DNA of 64,000 bases from Actinoallomurus sp. (GCA_025964625.1 JAOPYL010000214.1:7542-71541); one strand, 5' to 3'. Shown: positions 36,715-46,640, numbered from the stretch's first letter. A program made the numbers and translations. Notes: generated by a model from the letters alone, not told the origin.

Positions 36715-37869
36715 TCACCTGTCGAGCCGAGCGGCCTGGGAGAAGTGGGCGCGAAGCCGGTTGTCGACCATGCTCAGTGCCGATCCGATGGCCATGTGCA
36801 TGTCGAGGTACCGGTACGTGCCGAGGCGGCCACCGAACAGGACCGCCGGTTCCTGCCCGGCCATCTCCCGGTAGCGACGCAGTCGGGCCCGATCCTCACC
36901 CGCGCTGATGGGGTAGTACGGCTCGTCGCCACGGCCGGCGAAGCGGGAGTACTCGCGCATGATGACCGTCCTGTCCCTCGGATACCAGTCCCGCTCCGGG
37001 TGAAAGTGCCGGAACTCATGGATCCGGGTGTACGGGACGTCCACATCGGCGTAATTCATGACTGAGGTGCCCTGGAAGTCACCGATCGGCAGGACCTCCA
37101 GCGTGAAATCGAGGGTCCGCCAGCCGAGTTCTCCCTCGGCGAAGCCGAAGTACCGATCCAGCGGGCCCGTGTAGACGAGTGGCACGCTGCCGACCAGGCC
37201 GGAGCGCAGGTCGAAGAAGTCGGTGCCGAGCCGGACCTCGATGTTCGGATGGTCGGCCATTCGGCTCAGCCACGCGGTATAGCCGTCGACCGGCAACCCT
37301 TGGTAGGTGTCGTCGAAGTAATGGTTCTCGAACGTATATCGCACCGGGAGTCGACTGATGATCTCCGCTGGAAGATCCTTCGGGTCGGTCTGCCACTGCT
37401 TCGCGGTGTAGCCCCGGATGAACGCCTCGTACAGGGGACGGCCCACCAGCGAGACCGCCTTCTCCTCGAGGTTGCGCGGCTCGCTGATCTCGCCGGCCAG
37501 CTTGGCGATGAGGGCACGGGCCTCGTCCGGCGACATGACGCGGCCGAAGTACGCGCAGATGGTGCCGAGATTGATGGGCAGCGGATAGACCCGGCCTTTG
37601 ACGATCGAGAACACTTGGTGCCGGTACGGAGTGAAAGCGGCGAACCGGTTGGCGTAGTCCCAGACCCTTTGATTCGAGGTGTGGAAGATGTGGGCGCCGT
37701 AACGGTGAATCTCGATGCCGGTCTCCGGCTCGGGCTCGCTGTAGGCGTTGCCGCCGAGATGGTTGCGTCGCTCGAGCACCACCACATGAAGGCCGAGCTC
37801 CTCGGCGCACCGCTCCGCGATGGTGAGGCCGAAGAAACCGGCACCCACGACGATGAGATCAGCGTTCAC
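36715..37869 (-). CDS. glf: UDP-galactopyranose mutase
   Basis: [41 protein letters not shown]. Confidence 0.95.
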
Positions 37870-39052
37870 GGGCGAGCGGCGAGGAATGTGCGGGGAGCAC
37901 TGAGTGATAGACCTCCAGGACCCGATCGGCGAGTCTGTCCCAGGTCTGGTCCCGCACGCGCTCGTGTGCGCGGGCAGCCAGGCCCGCGGCGAACCCGGGG
38001 GTGGCGATCAGCTCCCGCACCGCGGCGGCGAGCAGGGGCGGTGAGGCGGGTGGGACGAGCAGCCCGCTGCGCCGGTGCTCGATCAGCTCGGGGATGCCGC
38101 CGACGTCGCTGGCCACGATCGGGACCCGGGCGTACATGGCCTCCAGCAGGACCGAACCAAGCTCCTCATATCGGGACGGGAGCACCAGAACGTCGATGTC
38201 GCGGAGCACCGCCGGTATTCGCTCGTGCGGGACGAAGCCGAAGAAACGGGTGCGGTCGGCGATGCCGAGACGGGCGGCAAGCCGCCCCAGCCGGGTCCGC
38301 TCGGGTCCGTCACCGACGATGACCAGATACCCGGCGGCCAGGAGCGCGAAGCCGCGTAGGAGGGTGTCGACGCCCTTCTGGTCGTGCAACCGTCCCACGT
38401 AGCCGATCCGTGGGCGGGGAACGTCGGCGAGCAGGCCCGGTCCGGGCGGTTCCGCGGCGAACTCCGCGGTGAACTCCGCGCCGATCCCGGACGGGATCAC
38501 ATGGACGTTCTCGTGCGGTAACGCCCGCCTCAGCCGCTCGGTCAGCGTGATGACGGCGGCGGCACGGCCGAGCCCGTACCCTTCCAGCGCCCCGCCGAGC
38601 GTCCTGAGGAGGACGGATCGGGGGCCGCTCACCCGCAGCGTGTGTCGCAGACTGCAGTGCACGGTCACGACGAGTGGCGCCGAAGCGTACGCGGCGGCGC
38701 GCAGGGCCAGTGGGACGATGGCGATGTCCTCACCCAGGTGGGCGTGCACCAGGTCGACGTCATGCGTCAGGTGGGGCAGTAGCCGCCAGGCGGACGGGCC
38801 GTAGAACTGCCGGCAGACGGGCAGCGGCAGGCCGAGCCGCAACACTCGCCCATGCTGCCCCAAGGACGCCTCGGCCGGTGCGGTCGGCGGGCGGGTCGTG
38901 ACGACGGTCTGCCGGACTCCGAGCCGGTCGAGGCCGCGGCTGAGCTGCGCGGTGTGGTTCTGCATGCCGCCGATGGGATCAAAGTTGACCCCGCGGCCCG
39001 TCAGAGCCGAAGCCGGGGGTTCGTAGACAGAGCACAGGCGCAGGACGTGCAT
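37859..39052 (-). CDS. GT4 glycosyltransferase, BtrM/NeoM/KanF-like
   Basis: MHVLRL...[19 protein letters not shown] recall 2-deoxystreptamine GTs; GT4 signature [11 protein letters not shown]. Confidence 0.85.
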
Positions 39053-39268
39053 GAGTCACCTCATTCGGAACTTTCGTCTCGCCATGCGGGGTCCGCGGAT
39101 CCGGCAGGCGTCCCCCTTAGTGCGCAGATGCCCAGGTCGCCCTCTCTCAATGCGCTGTGGGACGAACCTCCTTGTCCCTGATGGTCAAAAAGGGCATCCC
39201 GCCCGTAGTCCACCGGTGCCGCGGCGCGACCCGGCGTGGCGCCCGCGTCGCCGGGTAGATGCCACGAT

Positions 39269-44513: not shown

Positions 44514-45570
44514 GCCCGTCCCACCGCTCTCCGACCCCGGAGTCCGCCACGTCGCCTTCCTGCGGGCCCGTGTCGGCCTCGGTGACCTCCTGTGCTCGGT
44601 GCCCGCCCTTCGCGCGCTGCGCCACGCCAGGCCGGACATCCGGATCACGGTGATCACCTGGGTGGAGACCGCCCCCGTATTGGCGCGTTTCGCGCCTTAC
44701 ATTGATGAATTGCTCCCCTTCAGCGGATACCCGGGTATTCCCGACCGGCCGCCGGACGGCAGGCGCCTGCACGACCTGTTGTCCGGCGCCGCCGCGCGCC
44801 ACTTCGACCTGGTCCTGCAGGCGTACGGCGACAGGATCGCCGCCAACGAGATCTGCGAGCGGATCGGCCGATCCGCCGACGCTCGTGTCGGCGGATTCGC
44901 CGCGGCGGGCTTCACCGGCCGCGGCGAGCTGTACCTCCCGTATCCGCGGCGCGTGCACGAAGTCCACCGTCACCTGGCCCTCGTGCGGCATCTGGGCGTC
45001 ACGGGCGGCGATTCCGCGCTGGAGTTCGGTAAGCTGCCGGGCGATACCGCGGCCTTCGCGGCGCTCGCCGACCGGCACGGCCTGGTCCCCGGCCGGTACG
45101 CCGTCCTGCACCCCGGCGCGTCCGCCACAACCCGCCGATGGCCACCGGCCCGTTTCGCCGCCGTCGCCGACCAACTCTCCTCGCGCGGGCTGGAGGTGGT
45201 GCTGAGCGGCGTGGCCGCCGAGCGGTACCTCGGTCGTGCCGTCCTTCGGCATACCCGCTGCCGCCCGGTCGACCTCACCGGCGCCACGACCCTGGGTACG
45301 CTGGCTCTCCTCCTGCGCAATGCTGCCCTGCTGGTGGCCAACGACACGGGCGTCGCGCATCTCGCGGCCGCCACCGGGACCTCCAGCGTCACGCTCTTCA
45401 TGGCCGGAGATCCCGTGCGCTGGGCCTACCATGACGACCGGCACCGCGTTGTCCGTGCCGGCGTGCCCTGCAGTCCCTGTCCGCATCTGTCCTGTCCCAT
45501 CGACCTGCGCTGCGCTCAGGATCTGTCGGTCGGCGCGGTTCTGAAGGAGGTCCGGTCGCTGCTGGACTGA
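44512..45570 (+). CDS. GT9 (heptosyltransferase-like) glycosyltransferase
   Basis: GLGDLLCSVPALRALR, HPGAS...RRWP, ANDTGVAHLAAA, C-terminal CSPC...CPIDLRC. Confidence 0.9.
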   Translation: MPVPPLSDPGVRHVAFLRARVGLGDLLCSVPALRALRHARPDIRITVITWVETAPVLARFAPYIDELLPFSGYPGIPDRPPDGRRLHDLLSGAAARHFDLVLQAYGDRIAANEICERIGRSADARVGGFAAAGFTGRGELYLPYPRRVHEVHRHLALVRHLGVTGGDSALEFGKLPGDTAAFAALADRHGLVPGRYAVLHPGASATTRRWPPARFAAVADQLSSRGLEVVLSGVAAERYLGRAVLRHTRCRPVDLTGATTLGTLALLLRNAALLVANDTGVAHLAAATGTSSVTLFMAGDPVRWAYHDDRHRVVRAGVPCSPCPHLSCPIDLRCAQDLSVGAVLKEVRSLLD

Positions 45571-46640
45571 ACGGCCGCCGCGGGCGGCGCGGCGGCCGCG
45601 GCCCCGAGCACCCCGGCCACGGCCACCACCATGTCGGCGGCGTCGAAACGCCGCACGGCGACCGCGCGGGCCCGTGCCCCGAGCCGCCGGCGCCGGCCCG
45701 GGTCGGTGAGGAGCCGCTCAAGGGCGTCCGCCAGCGCAACGGGGTCGTCCGGTGACACCAGGACGGCCGCGTCACCGACCGCCTCGGGGATGTCCCCCAC
45801 CTGTGTCGTGACGCATGGAAGCCCGTGCGCCATCGCCTCGAGCAGCGTCAGGGGCAGCGCCTCCCTACGTGAAGGGAGACAGAAGACCGCAAGGCGCCGC
45901 AGGAGGGCGGGAATGTCATCCACGAAGCCGACAAAGCGAATCGGCAGCCCGGCAGCAGTGGCCTCGAGCAGGCTCCGATCACGCCCTTCACCCGCCACCA
46001 CCACGTCCAGCGCACAACCACGTGCGATAAGGAGTCCGACCGCCGCGATCAGCGTGTCGAACCCCTTCTGGTCGGTGAGCCGCCCTACCGCACCCACGAG
46101 CGGCCGCGTCCCCGCGACGGAGACAGCGCCCTGCCAGGGCTCCGGCAGGTCCACGCCGTTGCGTATCCGCACCACCCGGTCGGGCGGCATCCCCAGCCGG
46201 TCACGCAGCAGGTCCGCGATCTGCGCGGACACCGCCATCGCGGCGGTCAACCGCGCGTATGGACCGTCCGGGCCGCCCAGCCCGTCCGTCACCGTGCCCG
46301 GCATGTGAAGGGTCGCCACGGTCGGCGCCGCCGAGCTCGCCGCCGCCAGCGCGGCCCGGTTGCTGGCCGGATCCACCAGGTTCACATGCCATAAGTCGGC
46401 ACGGACCTCGCCCAGCCGCCGTACGAGCTCCGGCGCGCGCTCCCGGCCACGTGCCAGCGGAACCCGAGTGCACGATGAACAACGGCCGGCGAGGTCGTCG
46501 AACCCCGGAGCCACCGGTTCGGTGACCACCAGATGCCGCTCGAACTCCTCGGGGAGGCGACCCAGCAGCTGCCGTACATAGACCTCCGCACCGCCGTAGG
46601 CGTCGCTGTCCACGAGAAGACCCAGCCGAATCGCTGTCAT
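45516..46640 (-). CDS. GT4 glycosyltransferase
   Basis: DAYGGAEVY, GRLTDQKG, SRREALPLTLLEAM. Confidence 0.9.
   Translation of the reverse strand: MTAIRLGLLVDSDAYGGAEVYVRQLLGRLPEEFERHLVVTEPVAPGFDDLAGRCSSCTRVPLARGRERAPELVRRLGEVRADLWHVNLVDPASNRAALAAASSAAPTVATLHMPGTVTDGLGGPDGPYARLTAAMAVSAQIADLLRDRLGMPPDRVVRIRNGVDLPEPWQGAVSVAGTRPLVGAVGRLTDQKGFDTLIAAVGLLIARGCALDVVVAGEGRDRSLLEATAAGLPIRFVGFVDDIPALLRRLAVFCLPSRREALPLTLLEAMAHGLPCVTTQVGDIPEAVGDAAVLVSPDDPVALADALERLLTDPGRRRRLGARARAVAVRRFDAADMVVAVAGVLGAAAAAPPAAAVQSSSDRTSFRTAPTDRS

Follow-up and report, generated by a model that had tools for sequence, protein, structure and literature searches.

A composite glycosylation locus of Actinoallomurus with a relative of the 2-deoxystreptamine glycosyltransferases and a widespread oxidoreductase gene pair

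We analysed a 64-kb stretch of DNA from Actinoallomurus sp. (70–72% G+C; hereafter the window), in which positions 36715–46640 hold an island of eight genes. These encode a UDP-galactopyranose mutase (Glf), three glycosyltransferases (GT) of family 4 (GT4a, GT4b and GT4c), one of family 9 (GT9), one that contains a family 2 domain (GT2f), a Gfo/Idh/MocA oxidoreductase (Gfo) and a dehydrogenase/reductase of the medium-chain type (MDR). Its product is probably an uncharacterised glycoside or glycolipid and not an aminoglycoside antibiotic. Relatives of the encoded proteins point to an actinomycete of the Streptosporangiales type. It is a composite of three recurrent modules, namely Gfo-MDR, GT4a with GT4c, GT9 and GT2f, and glf with GT4b. 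The route that we favour, tentatively and as one that is quite possible, is the stepwise cytoplasmic assembly of a galactofuranose-containing hetero-oligosaccharide on a polyol-type primer other than polyprenol. A preceding reading of the same DNA, made from the sequence only, had proposed an undescribed conjugate pathway. Its galactofuranosyl-conjugate half stands, whereas the notion of one pathway gives way to a mosaic of modules.

Relationship of GT4a to the antibiotic glycosyltransferases

The sequence-only reading had matched GT4a to BtrM, NeoM and KanF, glycosyltransferases of 2-deoxystreptamine (2-DOS) antibiotics. An approximate NeoM sequence was used as bait in a protein-database search and for nothing else; all comparisons were made with the retrieved database proteins. 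The bait retrieved P0241 of Streptomyces fradiae (97% identical to it), P0281, which is KanF of S. kanamyceticus, P0244, named 2-deoxystreptamine N-acetyl-D-glucosaminyltransferase, and homologues from Streptoalloteichus tenebrarius and Micromonospora echinospora. The listed members of the NeoM family are 30–97% identical to the bait, mostly at least 44%, and the comparison set covers NeoM and KanF.

GT4a aligns with NeoM P0241 at 32% identity over 378 residues (E 3e-35) and with KanF P0281 at 33% over 351 residues (E 4e-37). In these BLASTP alignments the motifs FDxxGGMQ, DLVHxH, TVHCS and TLTER of the GT4a acceptor-side domain fall on NeoM and KanF, the latter an enzyme that transfers glucose or GlcNAc to 2-DOS (PMC5461906). 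Solved GT4 structures are more distant, with 75 bits for PimA (GT4a residues 23–386) and 53 bits for MshA, and BshA is matched as well. Membership of GT4a in the MshA, BshA or GlgM equivalogs was rejected on scores far under the cut-offs, as seen for MshA with 80.5 against 462.5 bits and for BshA with 82.7 against 273.7 bits.

In a neighbour-joining distance tree of 58 GT4 sequences with 100 bootstrap replicates, the NeoM family is monophyletic in all 100 replicates and leaves GT4a, which is 23–35% identical to its members, outside. The GT4a and NeoM families join in 96 of the 100 replicates, in a grouping that excludes the MshA-like and GlgM-like sequences, GT4b, GT4c and the GT4 that accompanies GpgS elsewhere (see below). 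The tree thereby places the GT4a family as the sister of the 2-DOS glycosyltransferase clade and not as a member of it. Of the earlier likeness to NeoM and KanF, kinship and shared motifs hold, but inclusion in the clade does not. The outcome that the sequence-only reading had named as refuting did not arise, as the tree does not put GT4a among the generic cell-wall GT4s tested and no export genes lie nearby. The family is large, with 2580 relatives in the protein database. It stands alone amid unrelated genes in Microtetraspora, Thermomonospora, Actinomadura rifamycini and one 63-kb metagenome contig (L001, L002, L089, L090), and in Streptoalloteichus it is followed by a GT4c-like gene. A look-up of the exact GT4a sequence found no record.

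These relationships bear on whether the island is a cluster for a 2-DOS-type aminoglycoside, or for another secreted pseudo-oligosaccharide antibiotic, in which GT4a would be the equivalent of NeoM, KanF or BtrM and Gfo and MDR would act as cyclitol dehydrogenases. Such a cluster would agree with the identity, the motifs and the sister position of GT4a, and inositol dehydrogenases are among the nearest solved relatives of Gfo. The gene content does not agree. The C, S and E genes of 2-DOS clusters encode 2-deoxy-scyllo-inosose (DOI) synthase, L-glutamine:DOI aminotransferase and a zinc dehydrogenase (PMC5461906). The real neomycin locus of S. fradiae (L091) has all three beside NeoM, the latter two as a DegT aminotransferase and an Fe/Zn dehydrogenase, and in addition two ABC exporters, a GMC oxidoreductase, a radical-SAM enzyme, a PIG-L deacetylase and an APH. 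No counterpart of any of these genes, and no other resistance gene, is present in the island or its flanks. A DHQ_synthase or DegT match is missing from every called gene of the window, just as the sequence-only reading had noted for DOI synthase and aminotransferase. The island MDR matches the neomycin-cluster dehydrogenase over a 108-residue nucleotide-binding Rossmann core only and is without its zinc sites. GT4a lies outside a 2-DOS clade found in every replicate, genes of its family are common and stand alone in non-producers, and the Gfo-MDR cassette is found in at least 592 species. We consider an antibiotic cluster of this kind very improbable. Membership of the island among the aminoglycoside clusters was rejected, and many of the more than 2500 GT4a relatives are stand-alone.

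A widespread pair of oxidoreductase genes

The MDR has 3032 relatives in the protein database, and a pattern scan with one genome per species finds it encoded in at least 592 species genomes. The hosts are mostly Actinomycetota, with few Chloroflexota and Longimicrobiales and one Methylococcaceae bin. Gene context was counted in the 80 best-scoring of these at least 592 loci, which are not a random sample. Gfo lies directly upstream of MDR on the same strand in 77 of the 80. Glucosyl-3-phosphoglycerate synthase (GpgS; NF010496, 447 bits against a cut-off of 262) is present in 59 loci, a distinct partner GT4 of about 396 aa in 62, and one or both of them in 64. An MGH1-like sugar-glycerate hydrolase (PF22422, 343 bits) accompanies the cassette in six. 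Five loci (L008, L013, L024, L063, L082) carry glycosyltransferases of the window type in place of GpgS and the partner GT4. No locus among the 80 has both kinds together, and the window itself lacks GpgS and the partner GT4.

The order of Gfo, MDR, GpgS and GT4 varies between Micromonosporaceae, Pseudonocardiaceae, Geodermatophilaceae, Rhodococcus, Propionibacteriales and Thermoleophilia, which speaks for a link by function and not by descent only. The partnership with GpgS points to small glycosides of the sugar-glycerate type at least as much as to cyclitols. Limited literature searches, which are no proof of absence, found no paper that links the Gfo-MDR cassette, or Gfo/Idh/MocA enzymes, with GpgS.

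For Gfo itself, the identity of a myo-inositol 2-dehydrogenase (IolG, TIGR04380) was rejected at 100.6 bits against a cut-off of 355, and only generic Gfo/Idh/MocA membership is supported. Among solved structures, inositol dehydrogenases and other Gfo enzymes come closest to it, at 60–72 bits. The pointer of the sequence-only reading to cyclitols, on which Gfo/Idh enzymes often act, is weakened both by the IolG score and by GpgS as the usual partner of the cassette.

The AlphaFold model of MDR (pLDDT 89) has a complete MDR fold, with a TM-score of 0.74 to threonine, butanediol and sorbitol dehydrogenases, and the Rossmann GxGxxG motif is present as GAGVVG. In the alignment with two canonical MDR enzymes, the catalytic zinc positions are changed from Cys to Ala and from His to Tyr (CGSD to SAGTE, GHE to GYME), and the four-cysteine structural zinc lobe is deleted in every family member examined. 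The protein is therefore a zinc-free MDR in which both canonical zinc sites are gone. The zinc-free class includes many ene- and quinone reductases, and for this reason an oxidation by Gfo followed by a reduction by MDR is judged the most likely chemistry.

A second gene group lies about 3–8 kb downstream of the MDR match in six loci (L016, L023, L057, L064, L076, L083), from several Streptosporangiales and Rhodococcus rhodnii. It comprises an MGH1-like hydrolase, a paralogous MDR (31–35% identity), a xylose-isomerase-like TIM barrel, a solute-binding protein with two permeases and a ROK regulator. This group resembles an uptake and turnover unit for a sugar-glycerate or cyclitol, and in some of the loci GpgS, the partner GT4, Gfo and MDR adjoin it.

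Recurrent glycosyltransferase modules

GT4a, GT4c, GT9 and GT2f recur together at 46–60% identity in distant actinomycetes. The set of four is found in Spinactinospora alkalitolerans (L088), there without Gfo-MDR, in Geodermatophilus maliterrae (L063) and, together with GT4b, in a Mycobacteriales metagenome-assembled genome (MAG; L024), and in part in L082 and in a Gaiellaceae bin (L013). The window-type combination also occurs in an Actinomadura MAG (L008), and gene order is shuffled between the lineages. Three loci (L005, L006, L008) keep glf and lack GT2f. Orthologues of GT9 are 52–57% identical in L024, L063 and L088, and those of GT4c, which lie beside GT4a or GT9, are 46–55% identical in L003, L024, L063 and L088. 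All components of the island belong to known superfamilies. Limited literature searches found no characterised member of the GT4a, zinc-free MDR or GT2f families and no paper on a GT9 with Glf in actinomycetes.

Two variants of these neighbourhoods may be recorded. In L088, the place of Gfo-MDR after the four-GT set is taken by an amine-oxidase-like flavoprotein (451 aa) and a pterin-binding-domain protein (13127–15330, plus strand). In the Gaiellaceae bin, a 789-aa open reading frame (ORF) beside the GT2f orthologue (L013 10402–12768, minus strand) encodes a UDP-galactopyranose mutase fused to a glycosyltransferase-like N-terminal domain of about 390 aa.

Glf of the island exceeds its equivalog cut-off (TIGR00031, 323.7 against 303.75 bits; PF03275, 264.9 bits) and has the FAD-binding GxGxxG motif near the N-terminus as VVGAGFFG (residues 7–14). 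It is predicted to supply the donor UDP-galactofuranose.

In GT2f, the GT2 domain recognised by Pfam is confined to the first approximately 125 residues. The remaining approximately 370 residues have no Pfam model and align in register to the GT4 profile (hhalign probability 82%, E 1e-5). When the sequence was compared with solved structures, only the GT2 part was matched and the C-terminal domain found no counterpart; the GT2f profile has 37 matches to solved structures, and GlfT2 is not one of them. The AlphaFold model, built with 20 homologues (pLDDT 91.8), combines an SpsA-like GT-A with an MshA/BshA/GlgM-like GT-B domain, and its best overall Foldseek match is bifunctional heparosan synthase 2. 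GT2f is accordingly modelled as a bifunctional GT-A plus GT-B enzyme. Its family is a small one and comprises 252 representative clusters at E<=1e-30. A longer candidate for the GT2 fusion gene, the 962-aa ORF at 42598–45486 on the minus strand, was rejected, since its first approximately 350 codons are GT9 read antisense. These upstream codons specify an Arg/Gly/Ala-rich nonsense protein with no family match, and the frame plot switches at about 44500. The ORF is a typical shadow ORF of high-GC DNA and would mislead automatic annotation.

GT9 clearly passes the cut-off of its Pfam family (22 bits, against the score in Table 1). Identity with a characterised heptosyltransferase equivalog was rejected, the models for heptosyltransferases I, II and III (TIGR02193, TIGR02195, TIGR02201) giving 80–82 bits under cut-offs of 134–185, and no genes for heptose-nucleotide synthesis were recognised in the window. 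GT4b has a four-cysteine insert of the form CX12CX2CX13C, CPNYRLFTQGRPCERCLSGGRLVNALRHGC, at residues ~130–159 of the N-terminal, acceptor-side domain. The insert looks like a zinc ribbon, and its cysteines are kept in the orthologues of L005, L008 and L024, down to 52% identity in L024.

The modular distribution raises the question of whether the eight genes form one pathway at all. Gfo-MDR could act alone on a solute of the sugar-glycerate or cyclitol type, turning it over or modifying it, with unrelated glycosyltransferases merely adjacent. The four transferases of L088 without Gfo-MDR would fit this, as would the 64 of 80 cassette loci in which GpgS or the partner GT4 occurs and no window-type transferase does, and GT4a is on its own in four cases, each a genome or contig. 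For Microbispora sp. ZYX-F-249, the longest contig listed is 23 kb with the GT4a homologue and 380 kb with that of MDR, and the paralogous MDR of the second gene group has a sugar importer, a TIM-barrel isomerase and a ROK regulator as neighbours, in what looks like a catabolic setting. The positions of the genes speak for a connection instead. Gfo-MDR lies beside window-type transferases, in rearranged order, in at least five lineages of different orders (L008, L013, L024, L063, L082), which is unlikely to be due to chance. GT4b follows MDR by 14 nt in the same operon, GT4a-glf uses the same divergent promoter region with its conserved sequence blocks, and at least one glycosyltransferase accompanies the cassette in every context. 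Separate pathways are, in our judgement, unlikely.

Loss of three transferases in a natural population

A 21.6-kb metagenome contig (L005) is 98.5–99.3% identical to the window over 32338–52750 and is devoid of the 3615 bp between 42814 and 46428. The junction (L005 6229–6247) has a 5-bp microhomology, TCCGG. What is left are the last 72 codons of GT2f and the first 70 codons of GT4c, joined out of frame, and GT9 is lost entirely; a third of the locus is thereby missing. We compared the contigs of four soil runs (X1 to X4) with the window and found that pieces of the assembly graph break exactly at the deletion points. A junction contig (42813 to 46429) has a depth of 11.2 in X1 and 5.4 in X2, and a contig carrying the segment has a depth of 11.3 in X1. 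Because junction and segment-carrying contigs occur side by side, the deleted and the intact allele coexist in the same soil samples; their frequencies are approximate, as contig depths are assembler values. The complete window is contained in one soil-metagenome run.

The intact form is taken to be ancestral, given that the remnants are truncated genes and that the full set is found in distant lineages. The part made up of GT2f, GT9 and GT4c is dispensable in nature.

Priming and export functions

No transmembrane segment is predicted in any of the eight island proteins, all of which are soluble enzymes. A priming phosphoglycosyltransferase, flippase, ABC-2 exporter, polymerase, ligase or chain-length regulator is not found among the called genes of the window. 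The sequence-only reading had seen no flippase, polymerase or transporter inside the island, and the absence of a flippase, polymerase, priming transferase or exporter extends to the GC3-supported genes of the whole window (GC3 being the G+C content of third codon positions). The sole ABC system of the window (16–19.4 kb) is a sugar importer dependent on a solute-binding protein, with a GH1 glucosidase and a LacI regulator. Priming or export genes are not conserved beside the orthologous clusters of L008, L013, L024, L063, L082 and L088 either, and inspection by eye of the neighbours of loci labelled type-B revealed no shared transporter or priming gene.

These negatives weigh on the main rival explanation, an ordinary polysaccharide of the cell wall or extracellular space that is primed on polyprenyl phosphate by a housekeeping enzyme and both exported and attached by machinery encoded elsewhere, for which the island would provide serotype-specific glycosyltransferases, Glf and two oxidoreductases that modify sugar nucleotides. 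Loci of this type usually contain Glf, a GT2, a GT9 and several GT4s, and GT2f resembles the chain-building heparosan synthase 2 and K4 chondroitin polymerase. The GC3 of the eight island genes (0.827–0.877, mean 0.855) is below that of the 32 other genes of the window (mean 0.913, sd 0.027; Mann-Whitney p=3e-6), which bears out the excess of A/T-ending codons that had been noticed by eye. The loss of three transferases within a population fits the diversifying selection typical of surface glycans, and the visible genome is 64 kb only. A polysaccharide is harder to reconcile with the lack of a priming transferase, flippase, ABC-2 exporter, polymerase, chain-length regulator or LCP ligase within 36 kb upstream and 17 kb downstream, and with the lack of any such gene conserved beside the six clusters named above. 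GT4a groups with enzymes of free cyclitols and not with the generic polysaccharide GT4s tested. The cassette partners in 64 of the 80 genomes are enzymes of soluble cytoplasmic glycosides (GpgS, MGH1-like hydrolase). Sugar-nucleotide tailoring is normally the task of short-chain dehydrogenases/reductases (SDR), of which the island has none. A polysaccharide locus is a real, if somewhat doubtful, possibility.

Organisation of the locus and its surroundings

Genes were called by GC3 and then scanned with Pfam and NCBIfam, which gave the eight genes of Table 1; the inventory of the sequence-only reading was recovered in full, each gene in its place. The start of glf overlaps the stop of GT4a by 11 nt, and the two genes are therefore considered one operon. 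On the other side of the spacer, MDR overlaps the Gfo stop by 8 nt and GT4b begins 14 nt past the MDR stop, so that two divergent operons, GT4a-glf (minus strand) and Gfo-MDR-GT4b (plus strand), flank 183 bp of intergenic DNA. GT2f, GT9 and GT4c follow as a second group, in which GT9 is divergent from GT2f and overlaps the 3' end of GT4c with its own 3' end by 55 nt. In total, the island encodes five glycosyltransferase polypeptides with six GT domains.

Table 1. Features of the island, with positions counted in the window
Feature	Position	Strand	Size	Basis and remarks
glf, UDP-galactopyranose mutase	36715..37869	-	384 aa	Pfam GLF and NCBIfam TIGR00031
GT4a, retaining GT-B glycosyltransferase	37859..39052	-	397 aa	Pfam GT4 domains, motifs, tree
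Divergent promoter region	39053..39235		183 bp	Spacer between the GT4a-glf and Gfo-MDR-GT4b operons
Gfo/Idh/MocA NAD(P) oxidoreductase	39236..40240	+	334 aa	PF01408 and PF22725; start codon uncertain by ~9 codons
MDR-fold dehydrogenase/reductase	40233..41321	+	362 aa	Pfam ADH_zinc_N only
GT4b, retaining GT-B glycosyltransferase	41335..42582	+	415 aa	Pfam
GT2f, modelled as bifunctional GT-A + GT-B	42598..44421	-	~607 aa	Pfam GT2, 101 bits; start GTG 44421 or ATG 44415
GT9-family (heptosyltransferase-fold) glycosyltransferase	44512..45570	+	352 aa	PF01075, 101.2 bits
GT4c, retaining GT-B glycosyltransferase	45516..46640	-	374 aa	Pfam
Segment present or absent in the natural population	42814..46428		3615 bp	L005 alignment and soil-run contigs

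The spacer contains blocks that are conserved with L008 and L006, with a mean column identity of 76% in the alignment. It holds an inverted repeat (39085–39106) around CCGCGGATCCGG, and the conserved blocks include CCGCGGATCC within this palindrome. Two or three similar units of the form TTATGCGC...GCCCAGG are also present. The blocks look like a putative operator for some regulator. No match to the sigma-70 consensus promoter was found, terminator-like sites occur at chance level, and Rfam families, riboswitches included, are absent from the entire window. A role of the island in anti-phage defence, suggested by weak GT4-conflict matches in Pfam, was rejected, as none of the eight proteins has a PADLOC match.

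The flanks carry genes of ordinary metabolism. On one side lie an SDR, an ADP-forming acyl-CoA synthetase and an AMP-ligase; the other side has an amidase, one TetR and one GAF regulator and an enoyl-CoA hydratase. Several features of the window unrelated to the island are worth recording. The 804-aa protein encoded at 59848–62262 (minus strand) joins an MFS transporter domain to at least three C-terminal CarboxypepD_reg/Ig-like repeats, an unusual architecture for a transporter, and the gene next to it (58994–59851, minus strand) encodes a YceI-domain protein that also has a CarboxypepD_reg domain. A cellobiose-type uptake operon at 13626–19388 (minus strand) consists of a LacI regulator, a GH1 beta-glucosidase (511 bits), two CUT1 permeases and a solute-binding protein; its G+C content at first and second codon positions is markedly below that of its neighbours. 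The regions 1–8562 and 21909–26472 contain three luciferase-like monooxygenases, three AMP-ligases, an acyl-CoA dehydrogenase, a flavin reductase and two thiolase-like proteins with a ChsH2-type OB/zinc-ribbon partner, a gene content reminiscent of the degradation of sterol or lipid side chains.

A model for the pathway

The model of assembly on a polyol primer without polyprenol is favoured on the grounds of a UDP-galactofuranose supply, six GT domains, a redox pair, soluble proteins only and the lack of export and priming genes here or beside the orthologues. A polyol-type primer is favoured since GT4a is kin to enzymes that glycosylate cyclitols, inositol phosphate and phosphatidylinositol, and since the cassette is elsewhere paired with GpgS, a priming enzyme of soluble glycosides. 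The primer would most likely be a polyol head group, that is inositol or another cyclitol, a sugar acid, or a lipid carrying one of these. GT4a, whose nearest kin are the 2-DOS glycosyltransferases and whose more distant kin include MshA and PimA, would make the first glycoside on it. Gfo would then oxidise and the zinc-free MDR reduce, bringing about an epimerisation or deoxygenation of the primer or of the first sugar, and the two may play the part that they have in the far commoner form of the cassette, in which GpgS primes. GT4b, GT4c and GT9 would each add further single sugars, and GT2f a disaccharide or an alternating chain. GT2f, GT9 and GT4c may represent an optional outer extension, in which case carriers of the deletion would presumably make only the core of GT4a, GT4b, Glf, Gfo and MDR. 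The end product could be either soluble or a glycolipid of the envelope.

Several points weigh against this model. Every specificity in it is deduced from family kinship at no more than 30–35% identity, and the cassette contexts that inform it come from best-scoring loci instead of a random sample. In bacteria, galactofuranose is known almost exclusively from polymers and glycolipids of the envelope; these usually depend on export functions, which could lie outside the visible 64 kb. GT9 and polymerising GT-A/GT-B enzymes are typical of lipid-linked glycans, and a lower GC3 together with presence/absence polymorphism are classic traits of surface-glycan islands. Finally, the four transferases without Gfo-MDR in L088 and the stand-alone GT4a genes of L001, L002, L089 and L090 make a joint action of all eight genes less certain.

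A more far-reaching interpretation would see here an undescribed class of galactofuranose glycosides or glycolipids, in which the sister family of the 2-DOS glycosyltransferases primes synthesis on a polyol such as a cyclitol. Gfo and the zinc-free MDR would provide a widespread redox step that belongs mainly to glucosylglycerate metabolism, and the GT4a family would be the pool of primary metabolism behind the aminoglycoside enzymes. We regard this full combination as doubtful. Should our reading of the locus hold, soil actinomycetes would possess a large sister family of the first glycosyltransferases of 2-DOS antibiotics, made up mostly of housekeeping enzymes, and the substrate of the GT4a family would show the origin of aminoglycoside glycosylation. 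Gfo with the zinc-free MDR would rank among the more widely conserved uncharacterised two-gene cassettes of Actinomycetota, tied mostly to glucosylglycerate genes, and knowing its reaction would close a gap in the metabolism of compatible solutes or cytoplasmic oligosaccharides. As the natural population contains the locus in two forms, one of them short of three transferases, a ready-made comparison would be at hand for finding the product by metabolomics. If instead the locus serves a polysaccharide, it would be one more strain-variable surface-glycan locus, and an ordinary one.

Comparison with known systems

The closest enzymes to GT4a are the 2-DOS glycosyltransferases. Like NeoM and KanF, GT4a has a GT4 fold, and the identity of 32–33% is near full length with common motifs. 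Unlike NeoM, it is not accompanied by a DOI synthase, aminotransferase, deacetylase, resistance gene or exporter, and its family is far larger and often stands alone.

MshA, PimA and BshA start the synthesis of mycothiol, phosphatidylinositol mannosides and bacillithiol on small or lipid-bound polyol or hydroxy-acid acceptors. What they have in common with the proposed role of GT4a is a soluble or peripheral GT4 that, at the cytoplasmic face, forms the initial glycoside on an acceptor other than polyprenol, with a locus that has no export gene of its own. The island differs from these systems in having no inositol-phosphate synthase, deacetylase or ligase.

The mycobacterial pathways to glucosylglycerate and methylglucose-lipopolysaccharide are primed by GpgS. 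They resemble the island in their soluble glycosyltransferases, in cytoplasmic synthesis, in the lack of export genes and in the Gfo-MDR cassette common to both. In contrast to them, the window is without GpgS, phosphatase, methyltransferase and acyltransferase, and GT4a, GT4c, GT9 and GT2f stand in for GpgS and the partner GT4. Galactofuranose is not known to occur in glucosylglycerate or methylglucose-lipopolysaccharide products.

In the inositol catabolism of Thermotoga maritima, the Gfo-family IolG and then the MDR-family IolM oxidise the cyclitol in two consecutive steps. Here, too, Gfo and MDR genes lie side by side, and among the solved relatives of the island Gfo the T. maritima dehydrogenase 3ezy ranks second. 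However, the IolM model gives 26 bits against a cut-off of 450, the island MDR has no zinc ligands, and the context of the island is biosynthetic, not catabolic.

For GT2f, the highest-ranking matches by Foldseek and HMM are the Pasteurella heparosan synthase 2 and the E. coli K4 chondroitin polymerase, which likewise hold two GT domains in one polypeptide. The whole-chain TM-score is only 0.28–0.33 at 13–15% identity, and the second domain of GT2f is modelled as a GT-B of the MshA/BshA type (TM-score to the target 0.6–0.67), not as a second GT-A. Mycobacterial galactan synthesis, finally, relies on Glf, on the GT2 galactofuranosyltransferases GlfT1 and GlfT2, on priming by WecA and on export by Wzm/Wzt. 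The island shares with it an actinomycete locus in which Glf occurs with a GT2-containing transferase of about 600 aa, whereas genes for priming and ABC export are absent from the island and the second domain of GT2f is of the GT-B type.

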